This document shows positions 780 through 34,514 of a stretch of DNA of 64,000 nt, piece after piece. Source of the stretch: Candidatus Aenigmatarchaeota archaeon (GTDB taxonomy: Archaea; Aenigmatarchaeota; Aenigmatarchaeia; CG10238-14; SpSt-28). The stretch is from positions 825-64,824 of the forward strand of contig JAVVFY010000001.1 in the NCBI GenBank assembly GCA_032249395.1, in the 5' to 3' direction. Position 1 is the first letter of the stretch; each line of letters opens with the position of its first letter. The notes under the pieces were generated by a model that made no database searches, was not told the DNA's origin, and saw nothing but the letters and a program-made list of their open reading frames with translations. The position numbers and the translations under genes were made by a program.

Positions 780-2867
780 ATGCAAAAATGGTTAATGAAA
801 TTTGATGCTAAGAGATTTGTAAATGAATACTGGGATTTGGGAATTCTCTTGTTAATTGTTTATATAGGTTTTAATATAAGAAGTATTAATGTTCCGGATA
901 TAGTTGCTGATTATGATCCATGGTGGTATTATAGGCATTCTGTTACAGTTCTTAAATATTGGTTTGACATGCCAAAATGGGACATTCTAAGTTTTTACCC
1001 TCCAGGAAGACCATATGAAGTTCATTTAGGAGTAGAATATACTTTAGTAATTTTCTACAAAATAATCAGTAATTTCGTTGAAATGACATTCATGCAATTC
1101 TTCATAATAGCTCCAGCAATAATTTCCGGCTTGTCAGCAATCCCAGCATATATTGCAACTCGCTACTTAACAAAAAGTAAAATTTCTGGATTATTCTCTG
1201 CATTTTTTGCAGTGTTAGCTCCATCTTTCATCGGTTATTCGGTTGCTGGCTATATGGATAGCAAAGCTTTTGTCGTTTTCTATTCTTTCCTATCGATTTT
1301 CTCTTTGATGTTTGCAATGAAAAGAAAAGACGTGATTGGTTATTTAACTGCAATTATCGTTAACTTGCTTTTCATTTACACTTGGTCCGGAGGAGGTTGG
1401 TATCCATTAATAGCATTTCTATTTTTCATTCCAGCGGTTCTAATATTCAGAATTTTTGAAGATATCATTCACAATAGGTCTTTGAAAGTGAATTTTAAAC
1501 CATTAATAGAAGAAGCAAAGTCTTTAGTTATTCCATTTTTGATTATTATAATCACAATAAATGTTATAACACAAATTTGGCTTAAAGAGAACATATTAAA
1601 TTCAATCTTAGCTGCTTTGGGTTTTGCTGGTTTTGTTCCTACTTTGTTAGTAAATATTTCAGTTGCGGAACTTCAAAGTATAAACATCTTCTCTTTAGAA
1701 GGTTTCCAAAGAGTTGCTAGTAGTGTTGGCTTCTTACCAACGATCTTAACTCTTTTTGGTTTGCCGCTTTTAATACTTTTCAAAATTTGGAGAAAAGAAA
1801 AAATAGCTTTTGAAGAGATTTTCCTATTCCTATTCGCTTTAGTAACTTTCTATATGATTTTGCACGGAGTAAGATTTGCTTTGATTTTCTCGGTTGCAAC
1901 TTCTTTGGCAGCAGGTTATGTCATTGGAAACTTTTACAATTATTTGAAATCTTATAGAAATCAATTCTTGATCGCTATTTTCTTTGGGATAATTTTGTTC
2001 TATTCTCTTGATTTGTTTTCAAATGCTTATGTTTTCGGCGAACAATACTCAAGAGGTTATGGTATAAGTGAAAATTGGAGAGATGCTCTAGATTGGTTAA
2101 AACAGCACGGCAATACAACAACTCTGGTTGCGACTTGGTGGGATCCAGGTCATATAATCGCTGGTTATACTGGCTTGAAAGTTCATGCAGACGGTGCTCA
2201 TTGTGGTCCAGGAGTTTGTATTCCTTACGATCACAACATAAGAATTCAAGACATGGGAAGAATTTTCTCTACTAGCAACGAAGAAGAGGCTTATAGCATT
2301 TTGAAAAAATATACTTACTTAACAAAAGAGCAATGCGATGAAGTTAAGAAAAAATATGGCAACATGATTTATGACAACATTTTGAAAGAAGATCCATGCA
2401 ATGTAAATATTACAAAAATTTACTTCATTGCTAGCAACGACTTGATTGGTAAATATTATTGGCTAACTTACTTTGGCACTGGAACAGGAAGACAATATGT
2501 TGTTTTGCCTTTAACGGGAAGAGATAATCAAGGCAACCTAGTTTATGGAAATGGTATTTTAACTCTAGCTTTTAAAGACGATAAAATTATTCCGATTTTA
2601 AACATACCATCTCAAGGAATTTTCAACATGGTTGTTAGAAAATTAGTTTTTGTGTACCAAGGAAATCAATATAACTTCGATTATTCAAACGTTACAAACA
2701 GAATAGACGGCTTAGTCTTTACGGATGGCACTACAGCAATATACATGGATCCTCAAACAGCTAATTCGATGTTTACAAAACTTTACTTTTTCAATGGCGA
2801 AGGCTTAAAATACTTTAAACTCGTTTACAGCAACCCAGAAGTAAAAATCTTCGAAGTAGATTTCTAA
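780..2867 (+). CDS. aglB: Archaeal oligosaccharyltransferase AglB (STT3 homolog), short form
   Basis: 695 aa. The N-terminal half has about 13 TM helices and is followed by a soluble domain. The catalytic-type motif is LVATWWDPGHIIAGY (a WWDYG variant), with an ISVAELQ (SVxE/TIxE-like) loop motif upstream. Confidence 0.85.
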   Translation: MQKWLMKFDAKRFVNEYWDLGILLLIVYIGFNIRSINVPDIVADYDPWWYYRHSVTVLKYWFDMPKWDILSFYPPGRPYEVHLGVEYTLVIFYKIISNFVEMTFMQFFIIAPAIISGLSAIPAYIATRYLTKSKISGLFSAFFAVLAPSFIGYSVAGYMDSKAFVVFYSFLSIFSLMFAMKRKDVIGYLTAIIVNLLFIYTWSGGGWYPLIAFLFFIPAVLIFRIFEDIIHNRSLKVNFKPLIEEAKSLVIPFLIIIITINVITQIWLKENILNSILAALGFAGFVPTLLVNISVAELQSINIFSLEGFQRVASSVGFLPTILTLFGLPLLILFKIWRKEKIAFEEIFLFLFALVTFYMILHGVRFALIFSVATSLAAGYVIGNFYNYLKSYRNQFLIAIFFGIILFYSLDLFSNAYVFGEQYSRGYGISENWRDALDWLKQHGNTTTLVATWWDPGHIIAGYTGLKVHADGAHCGPGVCIPYDHNIRIQDMGRIFSTSNEEEAYSILKKYTYLTKEQCDEVKKKYGNMIYDNILKEDPCNVNITKIYFIASNDLIGKYYWLTYFGTGTGRQYVVLPLTGRDNQGNLVYGNGILTLAFKDDKIIPILNIPSQGIFNMVVRKLVFVYQGNQYNFDYSNVTNRIDGLVFTDGTTAIYMDPQTANSMFTKLYFFNGEGLKYFKLVYSNPEVKIFEVDF

Positions 2868-6046: not shown

Positions 6047-7345
6047 TTATTTTTTCTTCTTTCTTCTTTTCAATATTAGGAAAGGATAATTAACAGGATT
6101 TTTAAACCCAAGTTTTGAACATTCATTGCAAAATTCTTTAAGCCCCATGTCTTCGTAAAAGCTTTTATTATCGCAGTTTGGTGGCAATAGGTTTCTATCT
6201 TGTCTAAAATGCCACCTCAATTGAGTTCTCAAATAATTAACTCTTAAAGGCGGTTTATTTTTTTCATTCCACTCATACATTTTCTTTTCTATTTCTTCCA
6301 TGCTCCAATTCATGTTTCTCAAAAATGTTACTAAAATGAATATAGCTCTCTTTCTTCCATCACTAAGTCCCTCCAAAATCTTCTTTATACAAGGAGGGAA
6401 AAATTCCTCAGGGATTTTACTCTTTTTACCTATTGGTTTTTTTGGTAATTTTGATGTTTCGACTATTGCAGTCTCCTCTTCCTTATGGTATTTCTCATAC
6501 CAATCTAAAGCCTCAATTACTAAACTTGTTGCGTCTTCTTTGGCTAGAATCTTAATAAAGCTTTCTTCAACTTTTGCTCTTTTTATTTCTGCTTGCTCTT
6601 TCTCAAAAGAATCTATTTCTTCTATTTTTATTGGCAAACTAACTAGCATTGTGTTCTCATTAAGGCTATATGGCATTCTGAATAGGTGTCTAGAACCAAA
6701 TATGTCAACTGTTACGACTTTGAAAGGATCTAGTTCATCATTTATGAGTATCTCTTTCAATGGTTTGCCTATTCTTTGTGAAATGTTATTTGGATTGTCA
6801 ATAGATAGAAAGGCTTCTTTTAACTCATCCTTAATATACCATTTTAAATACTCAATAATTTTTTGAGAAAGTTCTGGATACAAATTTTTTGTTGGTATTC
6901 CATTTACTTTAGAAGGGAAAGACTCAAATGGTACAATAACATGAAAAGACTTTCCACCCGAAAATTTTACCCCAATATTCTTTACTCCGTGATCTTTCAA
7001 AGCATCTATGAACTTTTTTGTTGCTATTTTAGCTATTTCGAAATCTTTCACATCTAAATCAATTAGCAAGTCCCAACCAATTCTCAAATTGTCTAACTCT
7101 TCTCTTTTCATTCCAACATCCAATCTCATAGGATTTTCCCATCTTTCAACAGAAGAATGAAAAGCCACAGTACCTTCTGCTATAGCTTGTAAAACATCCC
7201 CATCATAATTTAGAGAATCTGGTCTTCTTCCATAGCTCCCATCAGAAAAAACGGAAACCACTTCTCTATTCTTCGCAAATTCGAGTATAGCTTTTCTAAC
7301 TTTCTCTCTCGAATACCAATTCCAAACTTGGATAAAATCTACCAT
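6047..7345 (-). CDS. priS: DNA primase, PriS catalytic domain fused to a PriL C-terminal (Fe-S) domain
   Basis: AEP motifs LLIDLDVKD, FSGGKSFHVIVP and RHLFRMPYSLNENT. The C-terminal ~120 aa carry FFPPCIKKILEGLSDGRKRAIFILVTFL...LPPNCDNKSF...FCNECS (four Cys, PriL-CTD-like). I start it at the Met of MVDFIQVWNWY (7345). The 53 codons upstream in the tracked ORF are low complexity and would overlap the divergent minD. Confidence 0.8.
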   Translation of the reverse strand: MVDFIQVWNWYSREKVRKAILEFAKNREVVSVFSDGSYGRRPDSLNYDGDVLQAIAEGTVAFHSSVERWENPMRLDVGMKREELDNLRIGWDLLIDLDVKDFEIAKIATKKFIDALKDHGVKNIGVKFSGGKSFHVIVPFESFPSKVNGIPTKNLYPELSQKIIEYLKWYIKDELKEAFLSIDNPNNISQRIGKPLKEILINDELDPFKVVTVDIFGSRHLFRMPYSLNENTMLVSLPIKIEEIDSFEKEQAEIKRAKVEESFIKILAKEDATSLVIEALDWYEKYHKEEETAIVETSKLPKKPIGKKSKIPEEFFPPCIKKILEGLSDGRKRAIFILVTFLRNMNWSMEEIEKKMYEWNEKNKPPLRVNYLRTQLRWHFRQDRNLLPPNCDNKSFYEDMGLKEFCNECSKLGFKNPVNYPFLILKRRKKKK

Positions 7346-7416
7346 TATACACCTTGGAGCTAGAAGAGCTCCAATTAATAGTTCTTTGAAAAGTTTAATA
7401 GCTTTAAACTCTAAAT

Positions 7417-8175
7417 TTGAAAATGAGAGTAATAAGTGTGTTGTCCGGAAAAGGAGGAGTAGGAAAAACAACAATAACGGCAAATCTTTCTGCAGCCTTA
7501 GCAAAACTTGGATATGATGTCGTTGCTCTAGACGCCAACTTGACTACACCAAACCTAGGAATTCATTTTGGAGTCCATTTAGCTGATATAACGTTGCACG
7601 ACATTTTGAAAAATACAGAGTTGCTTAGAGAGGGAATATACATTTATCCAGGAGGAGTTAAAGTAATTCCAGGAAGTTTGAGCGTAGAAGATATAGTAAA
7701 TGTAGATCCTTCAAATCTTTCAAAAGTTATTGCGAATTTGACTTCGGATTTCGTTTTTGTAGACTCAGCTGCTGGCTTAGGGAAAGAAGCCTTAGCATCC
7801 TTAAGCGTTAGTGATGAGATTTTAGTTGTTACTAATCCAGATTTGCCTTCAGTTGCAGACGCTTTAAGAGCAATTAAGGTTGCTGAAAAATTAGGTAAAA
7901 AAATTACTGGGGTTATTTTGAATAGAGTTGGTAGATTACCAAACGAGTTGAAAAAAGTTGATGTTGAGAGCGTTTTAAGTTACCCTGTAATAGCTCAAAT
8001 ACCGGAAGACAAATTGGTTCAAAAATCTATAAACGAGAGAAAACCATTGATTTACGCATATCCAAATTCAAAAGCAGCAATAGAAATACAAAACTTAGCG
8101 TTCAAGCTAATAGGAAGTAATTACAGAATACAGCAAAGTCTTTTAGACAGAATATTTTCATGGGTTAGATTCTGA
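7417..8175 (+). CDS. minD: MinD/ParA-family P-loop ATPase
   Basis: Deviant Walker A SGKGGVGKTTITANLS and Walker B FVFVDSAAG; 252 aa. Confidence 0.8.
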   Translation: MKMRVISVLSGKGGVGKTTITANLSAALAKLGYDVVALDANLTTPNLGIHFGVHLADITLHDILKNTELLREGIYIYPGGVKVIPGSLSVEDIVNVDPSNLSKVIANLTSDFVFVDSAAGLGKEALASLSVSDEILVVTNPDLPSVADALRAIKVAEKLGKKITGVILNRVGRLPNELKKVDVESVLSYPVIAQIPEDKLVQKSINERKPLIYAYPNSKAAIEIQNLAFKLIGSNYRIQQSLLDRIFSWVRF

Positions 8176-9786
8176 AATTTTCATTTCCAAAGCAGCAACA
8201 GGAATATAAACCTTGAAATTCTCAAGTACTTGTGGATTTATTTCTCCAAAGAACCCTATTTCTTCTCCGGCACTATAAATCCTAGCAAACCTACCCTCGA
8301 TAAAACTCGAATGCTTATCATCTCTAAACTCGACATTAATTTTCATTTTCTTTGCAATCTCTAAAGCAATTCTCTTCATTTCTGCAAAGAACGAACCATT
8401 AGCTGCTATTACTGCAGAAACTTTTCTAATTTCTTTTGCTCCGTTTTCTGATTTTTTATCAGGTAAAACAACATCGCCAACTTCAAAAATTTTTTGTGGA
8501 TAGGGTTCTTTTGTGTTTTTTGATAAGAAATCCATTAAACTTGGCAGCAACCAAACTCTCATTTGAGTGTAAAGTTCCGAAACAGGATTTTTTATATTAA
8601 TTGCTTCTCCTTCTATCAACATCTTTTTGAATTGAAGTTCTTCGTTAGTCAATATTGGTCTAACAATTTCCTGAAAGCCAAAGCCAATCATCAATTCTCT
8701 GATTTCGTCAGAAATTCTTTCTATTTCTGTAAGTTCACCTTTTGTAAAAACATTTGGTAGCTCTGGGGTAAAATTGTTGTATCCATATGCTATTGCTATA
8801 TCTTCAATAACATCAGTTTCTGAGAATACATCAAATCTATAAGGAGGGACTATTGCTATAACTTTATCTTTTTCAAAAACACTCTTGTAGCCCATTTTCT
8901 TTAGTAGTTTCTTTAGCTCATCATCTTTAAACTTTTCTCCTAGAAACTTTTCTATTTTTTTCTTTTCAATTTCAATTGGAGTCTCAATCCATTCTGGGGT
9001 AAACAATTCTCTCTTTCCTCTTATCTTTACACCCTCTATCTTACATCCCATCTCACCGAACATTAATACAAGAATGTTTGTCACTTGTTTAACAGCATTT
9101 CTATCAATTCCTGTAACATCAACAAAAATGTTTTTTGTGTTTTCTGTTATTTTCGTTCTATCAGAGTTCAAGATAGGAGGAAAACTAAATATTCCTTTAT
9201 TATCGACAAAGGCTGGCCACTTGTTTGCGTTTATTATTAAGTCAGCATATCTTTTTCCTTTTTCAGTTTTCGCCAATACATCAATCAAACTCATTTCTTC
9301 TCTCTCTCCAAGAGGAACAAATTTTTCATTTCTAGAAACACCCTTATACCAAATTTCTCCTTCTATCTTGTCAAGATCGTGCAAACCAATTGCAACTTTT
9401 TTTCTCTTTCTTCCAATAGTTTCGTGTAATATTTCTTGAGTATTCATTAAGCTCTTTATTGTATCATCATCAAGCTTCACATTTCTAACAATAAAACAAG
9501 CTATATAAGGTCTTACAGGGACTTCCTCTTGTTTTACAACTACCTTAGAATCATAAATTTTTATTTCAGGAGAATCTAAACCAATAAAATCTCTTAATAC
9601 TCTTGCAAATCCTTCTAGAACAAACATATCGCTTCTATCGGCAGTTAACTCAACTTTTATCTCATTCTCGCTTATCTCTTCAACGTTAGATTTCAGGCTA
9701 TTTATCAATTCTTCCAATTCTCTATCTTTCAAATTCTTTCCAATTAGTTTAAGTAGTCTTTTTTTATCAAATGTTATTGTCGGCAT
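8158..9786 (-). CDS. pheT: Phenylalanyl-tRNA synthetase beta subunit (archaeal type)
   Basis: MPTITFDKKRLLKLIGKNL...ELTADRSDMF start typical of archaeal PheT; 542 aa; directly downstream of pheS. Confidence 0.9.
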   Translation of the reverse strand: MPTITFDKKRLLKLIGKNLKDRELEELINSLKSNVEEISENEIKVELTADRSDMFVLEGFARVLRDFIGLDSPEIKIYDSKVVVKQEEVPVRPYIACFIVRNVKLDDDTIKSLMNTQEILHETIGRKRKKVAIGLHDLDKIEGEIWYKGVSRNEKFVPLGEREEMSLIDVLAKTEKGKRYADLIINANKWPAFVDNKGIFSFPPILNSDRTKITENTKNIFVDVTGIDRNAVKQVTNILVLMFGEMGCKIEGVKIRGKRELFTPEWIETPIEIEKKKIEKFLGEKFKDDELKKLLKKMGYKSVFEKDKVIAIVPPYRFDVFSETDVIEDIAIAYGYNNFTPELPNVFTKGELTEIERISDEIRELMIGFGFQEIVRPILTNEELQFKKMLIEGEAINIKNPVSELYTQMRVWLLPSLMDFLSKNTKEPYPQKIFEVGDVVLPDKKSENGAKEIRKVSAVIAANGSFFAEMKRIALEIAKKMKINVEFRDDKHSSFIEGRFARIYSAGEEIGFFGEINPQVLENFKVYIPVAALEMKISESNP

Positions 9787-10995
9787 CTATACCTCCCTCA
9801 ACCACTTTAAATCATCTGAATAAAGATATCTTATATCCTCTATTCCAAGTTTAAGCATCGCTAATCTTCCAATTCCTAAACCCCAAGCAAGAACAGGAAC
9901 ATTTATTCCAAAAGGTTTTGTAACTTCTTCTCTGAAAATTCCAGCACCACCCGCTTCTACCCAACCTAAATTACCAATTTTCACATACATCTCAACGCTA
10001 GGCTCTGTAAAAGGAAAGTAAGATGGTTTGAATTTTACATCTTCTCCACCAAAAACTTTTGCTATCTCTTTCAAATATCCTAAAAGATGTTTGAAATTCA
10101 AGTTTTCACCAACAACAATACCTTCGCATTGCTCAAATTCGATAAAATGTTTTGCATCTATTACATCTGGTCTAAAAACTCTATCTATTGTGAAAATTTT
10201 TACTGGAAGTTTTCTAATTTTTGCTAAGCTTCTGGCTGATACAGCTGTGCATTGACTTCTCAATATCAATTTCTTTGCCAAGTTTTCATCCCAATAGCCC
10301 CATTTTTTCTCGTGCATTTTTTTAACATTTTCCCAAATTTCTTTTTCTTTAACTTTTCCTTCACCCTCCACAAAGAATATATCATGGATTTCTCTAGCGG
10401 GATGATCGCTTGGCATAAAAAGAGCATCACAATTCCAAAAGTTTATTTCAACCAAAGGGCCTTTAACTTCTTTAAAACCTAAGCTAATCAAAAATTCCTT
10501 AACCTCTTTTATTATTTTAATGTAGGGATGAATCTTTCCTGGAAATGTCTCACTAGGAGGAACATCAGAACTATATTTCTTAATTTTTACTTCTCTCCAA
10601 TAACCGCTTTTTATTACATCACTTGTCAAAACTGTTATCTCTTTCCCTTTTAACCCTTCTAAGTGAGCATATGAAACTTTTTCTACTAGCTTTCTTTGAA
10701 TTAAAATTTTTAGCATTTCGCTATCGACTTCGTTTATTCTATTCTCTTTAATTTTTCTAAGGGCTTCTTCTTCTGGAAAAGATTCAGGTTTTTTTATAAG
10801 AACAATTTCATTGAACTTTAATTCGATCCACCCTTTCTTTTTTGCCCATAGTAGGGCAATATCAAAATTTTCTATTTCTTTCTCAAGATCGCTTATTGGT
10901 GCTTTTCCAAATTTTTCCAAGTAAATAACTAGGTTTTTTTCTGGTAAACCATTTCTCAAATATTTTTCTCCTTCTTCAGTTAAGACGTATTGCAT
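9787..10995 (-). CDS. pheS: Phenylalanyl-tRNA synthetase alpha subunit
   Basis: Class II motifs ALFMPSDHPAREIHDIFF, RSQCTAVSAR, FRPDVIDAKHFIEFEQCEG and GAGIFREEV. At 402 aa it has a shorter N-terminus than typical archaeal PheS. Confidence 0.9.
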   Translation of the reverse strand: MQYVLTEEGEKYLRNGLPEKNLVIYLEKFGKAPISDLEKEIENFDIALLWAKKKGWIELKFNEIVLIKKPESFPEEEALRKIKENRINEVDSEMLKILIQRKLVEKVSYAHLEGLKGKEITVLTSDVIKSGYWREVKIKKYSSDVPPSETFPGKIHPYIKIIKEVKEFLISLGFKEVKGPLVEINFWNCDALFMPSDHPAREIHDIFFVEGEGKVKEKEIWENVKKMHEKKWGYWDENLAKKLILRSQCTAVSARSLAKIRKLPVKIFTIDRVFRPDVIDAKHFIEFEQCEGIVVGENLNFKHLLGYLKEIAKVFGGEDVKFKPSYFPFTEPSVEMYVKIGNLGWVEAGGAGIFREEVTKPFGINVPVLAWGLGIGRLAMLKLGIEDIRYLYSDDLKWLREV

Positions 10996-19759: not shown

Positions 19760-20267
19760 TATGATTCTAATTCTTTATATTTCAAAGATATAAAATTAAT
19801 GCTATGAGGTAATAAACTATTTCTGCCTTTTATTACCGCTTATTTACTTTATAAAGACCTAGAATGTTTATTTGAGTTTAGGGAAGCCTTAAAAGAAGTT
19901 ATAAAATACTCTCAAGTAAATCTTTAAATAAAAGGTTTTAATCGTTTTTCTAAATATGGGTAGCGAATACGTTAGATTTAGTAGTTTTTGATAACTACTC
20001 TAGCAACAATACTATAACGTAACATTAAATGAAAAAGTTTTTTAGAAGGTCAGAGTTTAATGAAAAAAAGGAAAGAAAAAGGGAAAAACCAGCAAGAAGT
20101 CATTAGTTGTTTTATTTCTTTTTCTTCTTTGCCATTTTGCTCTTTACCCGGGTTCCGGATGGAACCCTGATATAAATTTCTCGCTCATACTTAAATAATT
20201 TTTGCCGATTTTTTATGAAAATTGGAGGGATTTGCCCATTTTTATTTTTGCAAGTTAACTCTTTAAC

Positions 20268-22555: not shown

Positions 22556-23821
22556 ATGCTAGAATTTTTGTTTAAGCTTTTAGGAATGAAAAGAAAAGTA
22601 GAAGTAGAACAAAAGAAAGATTTCTTGATGATAAGAGAGAATGAACTATCGGAATTCGTTAATTCGCAAATAGTTAACGTAAGTAATCTAATGATGAAGG
22701 ATATTTTGAATTTTGTTTCGTTAATTAATGAAAAATTATATAAATTAGAAAATAGCGTTTCCTTATTAGAGCAAGAAAATATTTCCATACCGGACAAACA
22801 AGTTGAAAAAATTGTAAATACTAAGAAACACGAATTTTTAGGAAAGATTAAACAAGCAATTGAAAAAGTAAAAGAAGTTGACACATCTAATTTAGAAAAT
22901 TTTTCTAAAACATACGAAATTGCTTCATTAAAACTAAAAGAAGTGGATACAATTTCATTAAAGGATTTTTTGAATATCAGAAATTATTTTTCTAACTCAA
23001 AGGTTGTTTTAGAAAGTTTTAAAGATTTATTTGATAACTTTTATTCTTTTCAAGACAAACTAAAAAGCGAACAGTTTTTGGAAATGGTGGAGTTGAGAAA
23101 AGTTTATTCAGATTATTGTTGGATTAAAGATGAGATTTCTTCGAGGAAAAATGAACTAGAAAAGTTAAAATCGGAAATAGAGGAAAAAAGAAAAGAGGTT
23201 GAAAGAAAAAAGGAAGAGTTATTAAAGCTAGAAGATTCAGATGAAATGAAAAGATTATTAGAACTTCAAAAAGAAAAGATGAGAATTAGCTATAAAGAAA
23301 AAGAATTGGCTTCAATTTGTGTTGAAAAGTATTCCAGCTTGGAGCATATTTTCAAAAAGTTAAAGAGACAATTGGAAAATAAAAATTTAAGAGAAGCACG
23401 AATTATAACAGAATTTATCAATTCGCCTTTTGATGCTACAATAAACTATGATATGCAAAAAATTCTTGATGACATTGTTTCATTTATGAAAAATACTAAT
23501 TTCTCTAACGATGAGATATCAAAGATAGAAGATTTGGTTAGAGAAGAATTCTTCTTAAGATTAAAAAAGGAGTATTTTGATTTGGAAAATAGATTAAAAG
23601 AAATAGAAGATGAGATCGAAAAAATAGATATCGTTAATAGAAAACTAAAAATTGAAAATGAAATCAAATCTATCGAGTTTGATTTAGAAGAATTGAATAA
23701 AAAGCTTGAGAGTTTAGATAAAAAACTTAAAGAGCTTGAAGATCTACTTCCAAAATTAAAAGAAACTCTTGAAACTAAACTATCAAAAGTCTCTGGAAAA
23801 GAAATAAAGATTTTGGATTAA
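22556..23821 (+). CDS. Long coiled-coil protein, unknown function
   Basis: About 420 aa and rich in E, K and L with heptad character throughout. ATG at 22556 is preferred over the TTG at 22511. Confidence 0.55.
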
Positions 23822-26800
23822 CCGATATATGGCTGAATTTCTTCTTTTTGTATTTGTCTCCTTCTTTCCTCAAACCTTTTATAGTATTCAATCAGCTCTT
23901 TTGATAAGCTTGGTGGTATTTTCTTTAATGCTTCTTCAAAATGTTTTGCTTTTACTTCCTTAGCATTTATGTCTTCTCTTAAAGCATTCATTGCCGCTTC
24001 TTTAACCAAAGCTTCTAGATCAGCACCAGAATAACCTTCTGTTCTTTTCGCTAATTCTTCTAGGTTAACATCTTTTGCCAATGGAACTTTTCTTGTATGA
24101 ACTTTTAGAATTTCTAATCTTGCCTTTTCATCTGGTGGTGGAATGAAAATAAGTTTATCTAGTCTCCCCGGTCTTAATAATGCTGGATCAACTAGCTCTG
24201 GTCTATTAGTTGCTGCAATTAATACAACGTTTTTAACTTCCTCTATACCTGAAATTTCTGTTAAAAGTTGGGCTACAATTCTTTCAGAAGCTTCATGCAT
24301 TCCTATTCCTCTTCTTGGGGCTAGAGCGTCGATTTCGTCAAAGAAAATTATACAAGGAGCAACTTGTTTAGCCTTTTTGAATAAATCTCTGACTCTCTTC
24401 TCAGACTCTCCAAACCACTTGCTTAATAATTCTGGCCCTTTAACAGCAATAAAGTTTGCTCCACTTTCTGTAGCTACTGCTTTAGCTATTAAAGTTTTTC
24501 CACATCCCGGCGGTCCATAAAGCAAAATTCCTCTATGCGGTTCAATTCCAAGTCTTTCAAAAGATTCTCTATATTTCAAGGGCCATTCAACCATTTCTCT
24601 CAACAATTTTTTAACTTCTTCCAAGCCACCAATATCTTCCCATTTTACTTTTGGAACTTCTACCAAAACTTCTCTCATCGCAGAAGGTTCCACAACTCTC
24701 AAAGCATTTTCAAAATCTTGCTTTGTTACGACAAGCTTTTCTAAAACTTCTTTTGGTACTTCTTCTCCTTCTTTCAACTTATCTCTTATCTCTGGCAAAA
24801 CTCTCCTTAAAGCACTCATAGCAGCTTCTTTACACAAAGCCATTAAATCAGCACCAACAAACCCATGAGTTTTATCTGCTATTTCTTCCAAATTAACATC
24901 TTTAGCTAAAGGCATATTTCTCGTATGAATCTTTAATATCTCTAATCTACCATTTCTATCAGGAACAGGAACTTCAATTTCTCTGTCAAACCTTCCTGGT
25001 CTTCTTAAAGCCGGATCTATATCGTTCGGTCTGTTTGTTGCAGCAATAACAATAACTTTTCCTCTACTTTTCAAACCATCCATCAAACTCAACAAAGTTG
25101 CAACTATTCTTCTCTCAACTTCTCCAGTGACTTCCTCTCTTTTTGGAGCTATCGCATCAATCTCATCAAAGAAAATTATAGCTGGAGCATTCTTTTCTGC
25201 TTCTTCGAAAATTTTTCTTAAATTCGCTTCGCTATTATGAGCAAAAATTCCTCCAAAACCAGCAATGAAATTATGAGTGTTTTCAACTTCCACATCATAA
25301 ACATATTCTGGAGTTTCTATTTCTTTTATTTCAACAATTTCATCAAAGAAAATATCTCCTTCTAAAATCTTTCTTAAGTCGAGTGGAATATCCATTCTCA
25401 AAAGTATATTCTTCCCTATGCTCTTTAGACCATCATAACTTGAATCTATATTTACTTTTGATTTTATTGCATCAAGTGGAACTCTTTCTATTCTACCTTC
25501 CTCTCTACAAGAATTTACATACTCCTCAATCTTTTTGTTTTTAGATGGATTCAAGAATCCTATTTCCAAAAATCTCTCTAAGTTTTGCTTATCTGAAATA
25601 CAGATTCTAAATCTTCCATCTTTTTCTTCATATATTTTTGCAACTATTCCAAAGAATAAAAGCAAGTATGGAATATCATGGGCAATGTTTTTGCTATATG
25701 TAGCTATTTCAACTTGAGGCAAGTAAGTCTTTGTATTTAGAGTACCATCTCCACTTATGTATCCTTTGAGGAATGCTGCTAATTTTTCTCTTGAGACGTT
25801 AAAAACAAAACTAGGTATTTTCTTTTCTCTTGCATGTCCATTAAATCCTAGTGCTTTCATTGCTTTACCTAAAGCTGAGTTAAATATCCAAACATCAGCA
25901 GATTTGCTAGTGTTTTTGTAAATCCTAATTTTATCAAAAGCATTTGATATTATTGCAAGAACAAGCGGAACTTCTTCTGTGTTTAGAGAAAATCTTGGTG
26001 TATTTTTACTATAAGAACCTTCTGCTAACCATAAGCCAAAGAAAAACATTAAGCTATTTGTTAGCTTTAATTGTGAAGGAACTTTACTCCTTTTTGAATA
26101 AATGTTTATTCTTTCTTTTTCTTCGAAGCTAAGACTTATTTCGGCCTCTTTTATAAGCTTAACAAATCTCGAAACTCTTATGCCAATATTTTGATTCTTT
26201 ACGTCGTACAAATACTTCCTATTTGTTCCTAAGATTTTGGCAACTTTATCCCAACCCAATTTATTTGCAGCCATTTCAATAATTGTCCATACTTCCTTTG
26301 GTCTTACAGTCAATCCATAATCTTTTTCTTTCAAAACTTCAAGCAGATCAATTTTTTCTATTGGATTAGAGTTTTCTGGTATAATATTTGGAATTGCGAT
26401 GAATGAACCAACTTTTAATTCATCGGTTCTCTTCGATTCTAGTCCATTTTTAGTTAATGTGAATAGAGAATGATATTCTGTGACTCTAATCTTTCTTCCG
26501 CTTTTTGTTTTTATTTCGAATAGCTTTCCTGTGGCCTTATGTTTTATAAAATCTTTAATTTTTTTGAAAGTTACCTTGAAATTTTCATCAAAACAACCAA
26601 CTTCAACATCTTCTCTATTTTCAACAATCTTTCCTATTTCCTCAAGTTGTATAAAGCCATTTTTTCTTACTAGAATCTTTTCGTCATAAGGCAAAGATTC
26701 TCCATAAAACTTCGATAAGAATTCTGGTCCATTAACTGAAATAAAGTAAGCTCCGCTTTCGTTTGCTACAGCTTTAGCAAGTAAAGTCTTTCCTGTACCA

Positions 26801-27570
26801 GGTGGACCATACAACAAAACTCCCTTTGGAGGTTCAATACCAAGTCTCTCAAAAATTTCAGGATGTCTTAAAGGTAGTTCAATCATCTCTCTAACTTTTT
26901 CAACAACGGGTTTTATACCACCAATATCCTCATAAGTTACAGCAGGAATTGCCCTAGCTTCTAATTTCATTCCCTCTGGCAACTTCTTTAAAACTTCTAC
27001 TTCAGTTATCTCTCCAACTCTAACAATTTTGTTAGAAGGTTCCGTATTGACAACAATAAACTTTGTTTCAGATGGGAAAGGTGTGAAAAAGAAATCTTCA
27101 AAATCTCCACCAAAAAACTCTTCAAAAAAAGTAGTACCTCTCCTTCTTCCAAAAGCCGGAGCAGGAACAATGATATCTCCTTTTACTAAAGGTCTTCCGA
27201 GCAAATTTTGTTTTATTAAATCTGGAGCAACATGCAATATAACGCCAGGCTCAGCAGGAGCTAAAACAACTTTTCTTGCCTCTATTGGTTCGGCTCTTCT
27301 AACAATAACACTTTCTCCTACTCCAACGCCCGCGTTCTTTCTTGTAATTCCATCCATTCTTATAATATTCAAACCAATATCAGCAGGATAAGCTCTTCTA
27401 ACAATAGCGGCAGTTTTTCTCGTTCCTTCTAACTCGACAATATCCCCCTCTTTAACTCCAATTTTTCTCATTGCTTCGCTATCCATTCTAACAATTCCTC
27501 TTCCAGCTTCATCCTTAGCTGTTAATTCACCAACTTTAAGCTTTACTTCTCCATTTGCCATATTATTCAC
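23818..27570 (-). CDS. cdc48: CDC48/VCP-type AAA+ ATPase (two AAA domains) interrupted by an intein
   Basis: N-domain ([25 protein letters not shown]), D1 Walker A GPPGTGKT and D2 Walker A GPPGCGKT with IIFFDEID in both. It is 1250 aa, of which 488 aa are intein; the extein is 762 aa. Confidence 0.9.
25234..26697 (-). mobile_element. Intein with a LAGLIDADG homing-endonuclease domain inside cdc48 D1
   Basis: The host motif FYGE|SEANLRKIF is split. The intein starts [10 protein letters not shown] (block A, Ser1) and has IRVTEYH (block B, TxxH), [12 protein letters not shown] and [14 protein letters not shown] (two LAGLIDADG motifs). It ends [23 protein letters not shown], followed by a +1 Ser. 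Confidence 0.85.
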
Positions 27571-31502: not shown

Positions 31503-32912
31503 ATGAAAAAAGATATTCTTATTATAAATCCTAAAAGCAATGTTGCTATTTCTACTCTTTGGACCAAGAAAGATTTTCTACTTGAAAAAATTCCCGAAAA
31601 TTTAAAAAAGAAAGTTGGAATAATTGGAACAACTTATACCTCTCATGGCATAAACTACATTTTTGAAACTTTAGCAGAAAATCCGCAAATAGATACATTA
31701 ATTCTATATGGCCATGATTTATCCACTAGCGGAGAAACTTTGGCTAGAGTTTTCGGAGAAAAGAACACTAATTTACCAGTAATAATTCTTGATAAAGATA
31801 AGGTTGAAGAAATTGTTAGATCTGTTAAGCTTGTTGATTTAAGAAAAGAAGCAAAAGAAATGAAAATTGAAAAGCTTTTTGAAGAGGTCGAAAAGAATTA
31901 TAAAGAAGAAAAGCCAAAAAGAAAAAAAATTGATTTGAAAGTTGAAGAAAAGAGCAATATTGAAAGCTACCCATTTCCTTTAAGTGGACATTATATCTAT
32001 GACAATAAAAGCGTTTTTAGAGCCTGGGTTAAAATTTTGGATTTGATAATGAGGTTTGGCAGTTTGAAGTTTAGCGAATATGAAATTCCACAAAAGGAAT
32101 TTTTTAATGTTGTTGTTACTTTGGGTCTATATGGGAATGATTATAAGCTAGAAAAAGAGTTTTTTGAATTCATTGAAAAAGAAAATTTTGATAGGCACAT
32201 AAATGAAGTTTTAAATCCAAAAAAGCCAGAAGGCGTTGAATATACTTATGGAGAAAGATTTTTCGCTCATAGATTCGGCAAAAATCAAATAAACTATTTG
32301 ATTGAAAAGTTGTCTAAATCTCCATACTCTAGAAGAGCTTTAGTAGTTAGCTGGGATCATGAAAAAGATCAAAATATAGGAAATCCTCCTTGTATTATAG
32401 GAGTTCAAGGAATAATAACAGATAATTTCTACAATCATACTGTAATCATAAGAAGCAATGATATGTTTAAAGCTTGGCCACTAAATTTTGTTGCTCAAAT
32501 AGAACTTGCAAAATTTATTGTTAGTGAGATAAACAAGAGAGCCAATACTGACTATAAGATTGGTAGTATTACAAGCATAAGTATAAGCGCTCATATCTAT
32601 CAAACAGATTTCGAGAGAGCAAAAGAGGTTATAGAGAAGTATTCTGGAAAAATGAGGGAATTTGTAGAGGATCCAAAAGGAAACTTTTTAATTTATTTAG
32701 AAAATGGAAAAGTTGTTTTAGAGCATAGGACGCCAGATAATTCTTTTATTCTATGGAAAAATTCTTTTGAAACTTTTGAACAAGCCTACAGATTTTTAAA
32801 GAGTGGCAATATGTTTAGCTTTGCATCTCATGCTTTTTATTTAAGTAAGGAACTGAAGAACGCGTTTGATAAGCTGAAGAAAGGAGAAGATTATGAGCAA
32901 GATGCAGATTAA
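31503..32912 (+). CDS. thyA: Thymidylate synthase (ThyA family) with an N-terminal MtrA-like domain
   Basis: ThyA core: YSRRALVVSWDHEKDQNIGNPPCIIGVQG...IIRSNDMFKAWPLNFVAQIELAKFI (RR, catalytic PPC, RSxD, PxNF). The N-terminal ~170 aa (VAISTLWTKKD...GIIGTTYTSHGINYIFETLAENPQIDTLILYGHDLSTSGETLARVF) resemble tetrahydromethanopterin S-methyltransferase subunit A homologs. Confidence 0.7.
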   Translation: MKKDILIINPKSNVAISTLWTKKDFLLEKIPENLKKKVGIIGTTYTSHGINYIFETLAENPQIDTLILYGHDLSTSGETLARVFGEKNTNLPVIILDKDKVEEIVRSVKLVDLRKEAKEMKIEKLFEEVEKNYKEEKPKRKKIDLKVEEKSNIESYPFPLSGHYIYDNKSVFRAWVKILDLIMRFGSLKFSEYEIPQKEFFNVVVTLGLYGNDYKLEKEFFEFIEKENFDRHINEVLNPKKPEGVEYTYGERFFAHRFGKNQINYLIEKLSKSPYSRRALVVSWDHEKDQNIGNPPCIIGVQGIITDNFYNHTVIIRSNDMFKAWPLNFVAQIELAKFIVSEINKRANTDYKIGSITSISISAHIYQTDFERAKEVIEKYSGKMREFVEDPKGNFLIYLENGKVVLEHRTPDNSFILWKNSFETFEQAYRFLKSGNMFSFASHAFYLSKELKNAFDKLKKGEDYEQDAD

Positions 32913-33588: not shown

Positions 33589-33985
33589 ATGGAGAAAGAG
33601 GAAATTATAAGAAAAATAGCCGAGGTTTTGGAAAAAGAAAAGAAAGTAGCATTTGCTTATTTGTTTGGCTCTTTTCTTTCAAACAAATATTCAAAAGATA
33701 TAGATTTAGCTGTTTATGTAAAAGGTAAAAGCTGATGTTAATTTTGAGGCGAGGCTAGCACTTAATTTATAGAAAGAGGTTGGAAAAGAGTTTGATATTT
33801 TTGTAATTAACGACAAACCAACACTTTTTCTTTCAGAAGTATTTAGAAGAGGAAAACTAGTGTTTTCGCGAGGTGAAAATTTGAGAGTTAAATTTGAAAC
33901 GGAAAAGATTCCAGAAATTTTAGAGTATAATGAGCTAATGAAGCAGTTTGATGAAAAGAGGTTTGAGAAATATGGAATTGGATAG
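33589..33985 (+). pseudogene. MNT-type nucleotidyltransferase (antitoxin) gene, disrupted
   Basis: MEKEEIIRKIAEVLEKEKKVAFAYLFGSFLSNKYSKDIDLAVYVKGKS then TGA. The reading continues in the +1 frame (ADVNFEARLALNL*KEVGKEFDIFVINDKPTLFLSEVFRRGKLVFSRGENLRVKFE...). This amounts to one frameshift in an A-run plus an in-frame TAG. Its end overlaps the HepT start (ATGGAATTGGATAG). Confidence 0.6.
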
Positions 33986-34379
33986 AAAGCTTATTCAGCT
34001 TATGATTGATGTTATAGAGAGAAATATTAAATAGGCTAGAGAGATTGTTGAAGGATAAATTAGTTATAGAGATGAATTAGCTTTAAAACATGCGCTTCTT
34101 GAGAGCATAGAAGCATGTTTCGATATTGCAAATCATATAATTTCTGCTTTTGATTTTAGAAGACCCATGAGTTATAGCGATGCTTTTGAGGTTCTAAAGG
34201 AAAATAGGATAATCTACAAGAAACTCGATGAAAGATTAAAAGAGATGGCTGAGTTTAGAAATTTTTTGGTTCATAGGTATGCTTTTGTTAAGAAAGAAAA
34301 ATTAGTGGAAATAGTAAAACAAGATATAAAAGACATTAAAGAATTTGTGAAAGTTGTTTTGAAATTAATCAAAAAATAG
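33972..34379 (+). pseudogene. HepT (DUF86) toxin gene with two in-frame stops
   Basis: MELDRKLIQLMIDVIERNIK*(TAG 34032)AREIVEG*(TAA 34056)ISYRDELALKHALLESIEACFDIANHIIS...MAEFRNFLVHRYAFV. The Rx4HxY motif is intact. Only the last 70 codons form an open ORF in the track. Confidence 0.7.
34371..34376 (-). terminator. Oligo-T tract directly after the tRNA discriminator base
   Basis: The minus strand reads ...CGGGGCU A TTTTTT. Archaeal RNA polymerase terminates at oligo-T tracts. Confidence 0.4.
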
Positions 34380-34461
34380 CCCCGGGCGGATTCGAACCGC
34401 CGTCTCAGGCTCCAGAGGCTTCCGCTAGATTCTGCGTCCTTGACCGCTAGACGACGGGGCT
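34377..34461 (-). tRNA. tRNA-Gln (anticodon CUG) with a 12-nt intron at non-canonical position 29/30; no encoded CCA
   Basis: Minus strand: AGCCCCG UC GUCU AGCGGUCAA GGAC G CAG[AAUCUAGCGGAA]GC CUCUGGA GCCUG AGAC GGCGG UUCGAAU CCGCC CGGGGCU A. It has a 7-bp acceptor stem with A1-U72 (an archaeal tRNA-Gln hallmark), a GUUCGAAUC T-loop, and after intron removal the stem CAGGC/GCCUG with U33 and G37. This is the only GC-rich stretch in its neighbourhood. Confidence 0.8.
34420..34431 (-). other. Putative tRNA intron (AAUCUAGCGGAA) between positions 29 and 30
   Basis: It must be removed to form the anticodon stem. A relaxed bulge-helix-bulge can be drawn with central helix (A)CGC/GCG(G), 3-nt bulges AG^A and AA^G, and outer helix AGG/CCU. 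Confidence 0.6.
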
Positions 34462-34514
34462 ATTGTGTTGTATTCCCAAAATTATTTTTATTTTTCATTT
34501 CAATAATTTTACTA

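Follow-up and report, generated by a model that had tools for sequence, protein, structure and literature searches.

The 64,000-nucleotide (nt) stretch of the Candidatus Aenigmatarchaeota archaeon contig JAVVFY010000001.1 analysed here (positions 825 to 64,824; hereafter the window) has a G+C content of about 30% and a single strong G+C island, at 34367-34477, which holds the tRNA gene that is the subject of this study. The gene lies on the minus strand (34461..34377), comprises 85 nt including its intron and does not encode CCA. It matches the Rfam tRNA model RF00005 from end to end (44.1 bits, E = 4e-06, gathering score 29, model positions 1-71), and its own strand reads AGCCCCGUCGUCUAGCGGUCAAGGACGCAG-AAUCUAGCGGAA-GCCUCUGGAGCCUGAGACGGCGGUUCGAAUCCGCCCGGGGCUA, that is, exon 1, intron and exon 2. 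Our analysis confirmed it as a real tRNA-Gln gene of a hot-spring-type DPANN archaeon (Aenigmarchaeota) with a 12-base intron in the anticodon stem. A search for other hidden or disrupted tRNAs within the 64-kb window, using Rfam in E-value mode at permissive thresholds together with a scan for G+C islands, found none.

A single 12-nt excision restores a tRNA-Gln(CUG)

An intact acceptor stem (A1-U72), D arm (GUCU/GGAC) and T arm (GGCGG/CCGCC) are present in the gene, as an earlier interpretation of the same DNA (the sequence-only reading) had described. In the Rfam fold of the contiguous gene, the anticodon stem consists of the CAG/CUG pairs only and the 23 nt between them form an insertion, and ARAGORN labels the unspliced gene 'tRNA-??? 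(agcg)'. Base 26 is the last of the D stem and base 61 the first of the T stem, so that the 17-nt anticodon arm of a mature tRNA corresponds to the intervening 29 nt minus 12. Enumeration of the contiguous 12-nt deletions in this 29-nt region (n=18) gave five of five stem pairs only with a cut after position 29, and 0-4 pairs for each of the other 17. The deletion in question removes AAUCUAGCGGAA (34420..34431, minus strand) at the non-canonical position 29/30 and yields the stem CAGGC/GCCUG with the loop CUCUGGA, which contains U33, the anticodon CUG (positions 34-36; 34413..34415, minus strand) and the purine G37. In the predicted spliced junction, ...GGACGCAG is joined to GCCUCUGG. A canonical 37/38 intron and every other 12-nt excision were ruled out by the same enumeration.

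When the edited (spliced) sequence was supplied to ARAGORN, it was called as tRNA-Gln(CUG) with a length of 73 nt including the discriminator A73. Together with the Rfam match on the minus strand, this bears out the identification of a tRNA-Gln(CUG) at 34377-34461 in the sequence-only reading, and the enumeration bears out its claim that 34420-34431 must be removed at 29/30; the 72-nt mature body that it gave is correct if the discriminator is left out, the count being 73 nt with A73. Exon 1 (34432..34461, minus strand) covers tRNA positions 1-29, with the acceptor 5' strand AGCCCCG, the D arm, G26 and C27-A28-G29. Exon 2 (34377..34419, minus strand) covers positions 30-73, with G30-C31, the anticodon loop, the 3' stem strand, a 4-nt variable region, the T arm, the acceptor 3' strand and A73. 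The 73-nt product aligns without gaps to at least about 100 intron-less archaeal tRNA-Gln genes with the AGCCCCG acceptor stem, and the ends of the gene (AGCCCCG...CGGGGCUA) are likewise common to at least about 100 archaeal tRNA-Gln genes. The closest intron-less gene among the matches listed is from a member of the Micrarchaeia (L016), which is identical at 65 of 73 positions and has the same anticodon stem CAGGC/GCCUG. The pair A1-U72, an identity element of archaeal tRNA-Gln, is present, as is the discriminator A73, which is likewise typical of these tRNAs.

Directly after the discriminator lies a run of six T residues (34371..34376, minus strand), a putative archaeal oligo-T terminator, and a T-rich run follows the gene in most of the related sequences described below. 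Upstream, an A/T-rich box AAAAATAAAAATAA (34482..34495, minus strand), centred about 27 nt before position 1, may be a TATA box; because the genome is A/T-rich, this counts as weak evidence.

The gene and its intron are conserved in a clade of related loci

Three further metagenome assemblies from this population contain identical copies of the gene. Moreover, we scanned metagenome contigs for tRNA-Gln genes that share this 5' end and have an extra 5-30 nt before the anticodon loop, a pattern that required an insert, and obtained 46 contigs, 16 of which carry an insert of 11-12 nt at exactly the 29/30 site. Together with the window gene, these comprise 13 distinct sequences, which we refer to as variants; one of the 12 others (L155) has an 11-nt intron.

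Among the 13 variants, 69 of the 73 exon columns are invariant. Exon 1 varies only at D-loop column 20 and at position 28 (A28/G28), and the two variable columns of exon 2 are one in the variable region and position 42. Positions 28 and 42 pair with each other in the mature stem, across the intron, and this pair is A-U in nine variants, G-U in three and G-C in one. Within the intron, five of the 12 columns vary (32-35 and 40), four of them in an unpaired loop, where the bases AUCUA, AAUUA, AUUUA, AUUCA, AUUGA, AUAUA, UAGAA and AAUA occur. Invariant are the first intron base (A31), A36 before the GCG, the GCG itself, which can pair with C25-G26-C27 of the exon, and the final AA. The loci are syntenic: a DedA-family gene adjoins the tRNA gene, with 78-91% protein identity to that of the window, and AlaX reaches up to 97%. 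The non-coding flanks have strongly diverged between most variants, and the near-invariance of the exons beside such flanks therefore argues for purifying selection on the exons. Extended to the motif bases, this conservation in syntenic loci indicates that selection keeps both gene and intron across a clade of genus or family level.

This pattern speaks strongly against a decaying pseudogene, in which a 12-nt insertion would have broken the anticodon stem while an intact second tRNA-Gln, either CUG or a UUG isoacceptor reading CAG by wobble, did the work. In favour of a pseudogene, ARAGORN does not recognise the gene, and CAG codons would be in the minority at 30% G+C, so that a CUG isoacceptor might be dispensable; furthermore, our pattern scan for tRNA-Gln genes on genome contigs did not reach the host species, and the metagenome pattern required an insert. 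A dead gene would, however, not be expected to keep 69 of 73 exon columns beside strongly diverged flanks, to compensate one of its few exon changes across a stem, or to retain the site, the length (11-12 nt) and the splice-motif bases of its insert while the loop bases drift. We therefore regard a pseudogene as very improbable.

Even less credible is that the 12 nt are retained in the mature RNA, which would then have a non-decoding role, for example as a tRNA-like integration target or as a regulatory RNA beside the HepT/MNT remnant described below. The context lends this idea some colour, as tRNA genes are common integration sites and a truncated HepT-like open reading frame (ORF) reaches into the 3' end of the gene before it stops. 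Against it, all decoding features (U33, CUG, G37, A1-U72, A73 and the T loop) are preserved, a 3-bp stem with a 23-nt loop is unusable as an anticodon arm, and the conservation of the splice-motif bases would be left without explanation.

The predicted splice sites lie in a relaxed bulge-helix-bulge motif

The archaeal splicing endonuclease EndA makes its cuts 2 nt 3' of both strands of a 4-bp helix with a 3-nt bulge on either side, an arrangement called bulge-helix-bulge (BHB) (PMC5829648, PMC3239211). In the window gene the two predicted cuts fall after gene bases 30 and 42, within AG^A on the 5' side and AA^G on the 3' side. The two sites and the 2-nt rule together fix the strands of the central helix as gene bases 25-28 (ACGC) and 37-40 (GCGG), so that each cut is 2 nt 3' of a central-helix strand. 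The exon strand H (34434..34437, minus strand; A24-C25-G26-C27 in tRNA numbering) overlaps the 3' strand of the D stem and lies 2 nt upstream of the 5' cut, whereas the intron strand H' (34422..34425, minus strand; GCGG, or GCGA in five variants) is followed by AA and the 3' cut.

The central helix has three Watson-Crick pairs (C-G, G-C, C-G) and an A.G mismatch, which is A.A in the five variants. Pairs 26-39, 27-38 and 28-37 are standard in 13/13 variants, and pair 25-40 is standard in none. An outer helix h, formed between the exons, pairs AGG of the D loop and D stem (34438..34440, minus strand) with C31-C32-U33 (34416..34418, minus strand) in 13/13 variants and closes the 3' bulge. The local minimum-energy fold of gene bases 19-49 consists of exactly these outer and central helices, '(((.(((........)))....)))', in 12/13 variants. 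By comparison, shuffled or random introns formed three pairs in the register of the motif in only 1-2% of cases. Given this low rate, the location in the sole strong G+C island and the recurrence in 12 other variants, the arrangement goes beyond chance.

In this fold, a 3-4-nt bulge (R-A-A^G) would contain the 3' splice site, and the 5' one would be part of an 8-nt hairpin loop (AG^AAUCUA). As only 4-5 unpaired bases separate the 5' site from the intron strand, no inner helix is possible. The lack of an inner helix, the position of the 5' site in an 8-nt loop and the mismatch at the fourth central pair set the motif apart from the strict hBHBh' form with outer (h), central (H) and inner (h') helices, a substrate of the alpha4 and alpha'2 enzymes in which H has 4 bp, h' at least 2 bp and both bulges 3 nt. 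An outer helix, a bulge with one splice site, a central helix and a loop with the other site are what characterizes the relaxed hBH (bulge-helix-loop) form, which (alpha-beta)2 and epsilon2 EndA accept as substrate, and as modelled here the motif is of this form. The sequence-only reading had drawn a relaxed BHB that has a loop where the inner helix would be; its register is correct, and we found no other BHB-like structure in register.

An alternative substrate would be a cloverleaf-compatible fold in which UCUAG of the intron pairs with C34-U35-G36-G37-A38, as in canonical introns, and the sites are measured from the mature domain. This is the predicted minimum-energy structure of the precursor (-36.5 vs -33.0 kcal/mol for the motif conformer), it preserves the D stem, and its intron-anticodon pairs are kept in 62-100% of the variants per pair, with A36-U35 and G37-C34 invariant. 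In this fold, however, a helix meets an internal loop at the 5' site, a 3-nt hairpin loop contains the 3' site, and the 2-nt offset from a common 4-bp helix that the BHB rule demands is lacking at both (PMC5829648, PMC3239211). Ruler-type recognition has been described for eukaryotic rather than archaeal enzymes (PMC3239211). Moreover, three of the intron-anticodon pairs are broken in 2-5 of the 13 variants whereas the hBH pairs hold in all of them, and U-rich loop bases easily pair with G or A by chance. Cleavage of this fold by EndA thus appears improbable, if slightly less so than a pseudogene.

Since the splice sites of the whole-molecule minimum-energy fold are outside BHB geometry, it was rejected as the splicing substrate, and we treat this predicted fold as a competing or resting conformer. 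Its pairing of gene bases 33-40 with 44-51 could serve to hide the anticodon until splicing, or could have arisen by chance from the U-rich loop. The motif conformer is 0.1-4.1 kcal/mol above the predicted minimum of the whole precursor.

Epsilon2-type endonucleases are widespread in the phylum

Cleavage of a relaxed motif of this kind is not expected of the strict alpha4 or alpha'2 enzymes (PMC5829648), and the sequence-only reading had called for an endonuclease of broad specificity. One precedent is the epsilon2 EndA of ARMAN-2, which cleaves a 13-nt hBH intron at site 59/60 in vitro (PMC3239211, PMC12397907). In the literature searched, the three-unit epsilon2 EndA is known only for ARMAN-1/-2 and Mia14 (Micrarchaeota).

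A 396-aa EndA is encoded on metagenome contig L154 (3266-4456, minus strand), which also carries a tRNA-Gln gene with a D-loop intron (1829-1920). Searches with this protein and with a relative from a low-G+C lineage (P0302) retrieved more than 1300 proteins of 390-400 aa (about 395 aa), and the organism-named matches in this family are all from Aenigmarchaeota/Aenigmatarchaeota except for one labelled Nanoarchaeota. P0302 aligns with the three-unit epsilon2 EndA of ARMAN-2 (PDB 4FZ2) over residues 13-392 (E = 3e-99), including the region of the ARMAN-specific loop. On another contig (L186), an epsilon2-type EndA (9122-10300) is encoded 8 kb from a tRNA-Gln(CUG) gene (~1204-1300, plus strand), whose acceptor stem and T arm are as in the window gene and which has a D-loop insert of about 21 nt. 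Further three-unit EndA examples are L181:3001-4179 and proteins P0209-P0367, and in the low-G+C lineages EndA is part of a conserved block of KaiC-like ATPase, DUF498 and EndA, followed by PolB. Taken together, the occurrence of the epsilon2 EndA family throughout the phylum and the cleavage of an hBH intron by the ARMAN-2 enzyme make the postulated broad specificity well grounded at the level of the phylum.

The proteins of the host metagenome-assembled genome (MAG) carry accessions of the form MDT7858xxx (those of the window are identical to MDT7858429-MDT7858462, Candidatus Aenigmarchaeota archaeon), and contigs of up to 307 kb exist in the same population. A query with the M. jannaschii EndA returned only relatives from Methanococcales and Methanobacterium among the 120 matches listed, and ranking the EndA matches by amino-acid composition, as a proxy for low G+C, did not single out the enzyme of the host.

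Consequences for annotation and related tRNA-Gln genes

The warning of the sequence-only reading that standard finders may misassign or miss the gene applies to the orthologs as well. In addition to the 'tRNA-???' call in the window, ARAGORN annotates the ortholog in L142 (6286-6372) as tRNA-Ala(agc), because the AGC of the intron is read as the anticodon, and it misses those in L127 and L151. Rfam at its gathering threshold misses the ortholog in L151 and the D-loop-intron genes in L186 and L029. As a consequence of such calls by common tools, MAGs of this clade will seem to be without a tRNA-Gln(CUG) or to have a spurious tRNA.

Furthermore, the acceptor stem of the window gene recurs in tRNA-Gln genes of other archaeal lineages that carry an insert at a different non-canonical site (L186/L187/L188, L154, L029, L012/L064, L053, L089 and many of L127-L172). 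These are from contigs labelled Aenigmatarchaeota, Hadarchaeota, Micrarchaeota and Marsarchaeota and from unlabelled metagenome contigs, and their inserts of about 11 to 30 nt are mostly located in the region of the D loop or just 5' of the anticodon stem. Such a distribution suggests repeated gain or movement of introns in one gene family.

Other features of the window

On the opposite strand, a 70-aa HepT-like ORF (34167-34379, plus strand) overlaps the 3' end of the tRNA gene with its stop codon, and a 48-aa MNT (nucleotidyltransferase) fragment lies at 33589-33735 (plus strand). Both are far shorter than typical HepT/MNT toxin-antitoxin proteins, and in the relatives L132, L136, L143, L144 and L167 the HepT match is spread over two frames, which points to decay of the HepT/MNT module beside the tRNA gene.

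Elsewhere in the window, a 485-aa ORF (6047-7504, minus strand) contains matches to the small DNA primase subunit at residues 149-293 (PF01896) and to the large one at residues 309-445 (PF04104) and looks like a fused PriS-PriL primase, presumably of the kind that occurs in Nanoarchaeum equitans. A CDC48-type AAA ATPase of 1250 aa (23818-27570, minus strand) is split by an intein with a LAGLIDADG homing-endonuclease domain, and in a 469-aa protein (31503-32912, plus strand) a thymidylate synthase domain occurs together with a PterinBD-DUF4346 domain. A G+C-rich perfect hairpin, GGGTTCC-GGAT-GGAACCC (20149-20166, plus strand), with no match to an Rfam family, is located in 750 nt of gene-poor sequence that separate a ribosomal-protein cluster from the next genes.

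Discussion

Our analysis makes it very likely that the locus is a functional tRNA-Gln(CUG) gene of Aenigmarchaeota whose 12-nt intron, at position 29/30 on the 5' side of the anticodon stem, is spliced by proteins of the EndA type. In the processing pathway we propose, the 85-nt body would be transcribed together with a leader and a trailer. The intron region would then leave the cloverleaf, with C25-G26-C27 pairing to GCG of the intron and AGG pairing to C31-C32-U33. This refolding would set the 3' site in a bulge and the 5' site in a loop, each 2 nt 3' of a strand of the central helix, and a broad-specificity endonuclease, in this organism most likely of the three-unit epsilon2 type, would cut at both sites. 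Finally, an RtcB-type ligase would join G29 to G30, whereupon the CAGGC/GCCUG stem could form.

Several points weigh against this interpretation. The central helix has only three Watson-Crick pairs in addition to an A.G or A.A mismatch. As the motif makes use of the 3' strand of the D stem, the precursor must open this stem and leave the cloverleaf, and the motif conformer is predicted at -33.0 kcal/mol, compared to a whole-molecule minimum of -36.5 in which the intron is paired with the anticodon. Because the pairs of the motif helices are invariant, their covariation is nil and what speaks for them in the variants is conservation. The clade is shallow, with neighbouring proteins that are 78-97% identical, so that this conservation could partly reflect shared ancestry. 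With regard to the enzyme, Pfam scans and precomputed Pfam matches revealed no splicing endonuclease in the 64-kb window, which does encode archaeal ribosomal proteins, GINS, AglB and several aminoacyl-tRNA synthetases. Queries with the EndA of L154 and with P0302 gave no match in the host MAG range MDT7858xxx, and the contigs encoding P0242, P0302, P0304, P0341, P0288 and P0268 are from other samples, none of them from assemblies of the host. The broad-specificity endonuclease of the sequence-only reading thus fits the homologs of the phylum, while the enzyme of this genome was not found in these searches.

The closest known counterpart is the pre-tRNA-Cys(GCA) of ARMAN-2 (Ca. Micrarchaeum acidiphilum), which has a 13-nt intron at 59/60 with a relaxed hBH, or bulge-helix-loop (BHL), motif and is cleaved by an epsilon2 EndA (PMC3239211, PMC12397907). 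Common to both are a very short intron (12 and 13 nt, respectively), a non-canonical site, a DPANN host and splice sites in a bulge and a loop with no inner helix; moreover, the type of enzyme that cleaves the ARMAN-2 intron has full-length homologs throughout Aenigmarchaeota. The two differ in position, the ARMAN-2 intron being in the T loop and the window intron in the anticodon stem. Furthermore, cleavage has been demonstrated for ARMAN-2, whereas the window intron is known from its sequence, and the central helix of the latter, which is in competition with the D stem, consists of three Watson-Crick pairs and a mismatch.

The insertion point itself is shared with introns of Thermoproteales and with the split tRNA-Ala of Caldivirga maquilingensis (PMC4090602), which likewise form a BHB-type motif through an alternative fold of the precursor and need an endonuclease of broad specificity. 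In contrast to these crenarchaeal cases, which depend on an (alpha-beta)2 EndA with a Crenarchaea-specific loop, the window gene is from a DPANN host with a likely epsilon2 enzyme, and both the isoacceptor and the intron sequence are different. The sequence-only reading had attributed introns at 29/30 mainly to Thermoproteales; the position is indeed among the non-canonical sites published for introns and split genes, although it is recognised in several archaeal groups (PMC4090602). Canonical 37/38 introns with their strict hBHBh' motif are processed by the protein-catalysed chemistry proposed here and with the same 2-nt offset from the central helix, and the window intron differs from them in its position, in the lack of the inner helix h' and in a 5' site located in a loop.

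Earlier work on DPANN genomes has described relaxed motifs, introns of very small size and tRNA predictions that are incomplete (PMC3239211, PMC5829648). DPANN EndAs with extra loops have been linked to more frequent disruption of tRNA genes, and tRNA sets obtained with standard tools are incomplete (PMC5829648); that study of 46 species included no genome of Aenigmarchaeota. In the literature searched, we found no paper on tRNA introns of Aenigmarchaeota, on their EndA type or on the intron clade reported here. The intron is therefore a solid but ordinary new example of a kind that is already known.

A wider view can be put forward only tentatively, and we hold it to be rather less probable than its opposite. 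The epsilon2 EndA may be the usual enzyme in a second DPANN phylum, Aenigmarchaeota, in which a single tRNA-Gln gene would have hosted introns at several non-canonical sites depending on the lineage (29/30, around the D loop, or immediately 5' of the anticodon stem), indicating ongoing gain and loss. The 29/30 intron of 12 nt (11 nt in L155), whose 3-bp central helix has to compete with the D stem, would in that case approach the minimal substrate of such an enzyme.

Overall, our findings leave the known picture of archaeal tRNA splicing unchanged and add to it a very short 29/30 intron with a bulge-helix-loop motif that is conserved in a clade of a DPANN phylum whose tRNA introns and splicing enzyme the literature searched does not cover. 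With its invariant GCG and freely varying loop bases, this clade provides a natural mutational series from which the minimal substrate of endonucleases of the epsilon2 type could be defined.

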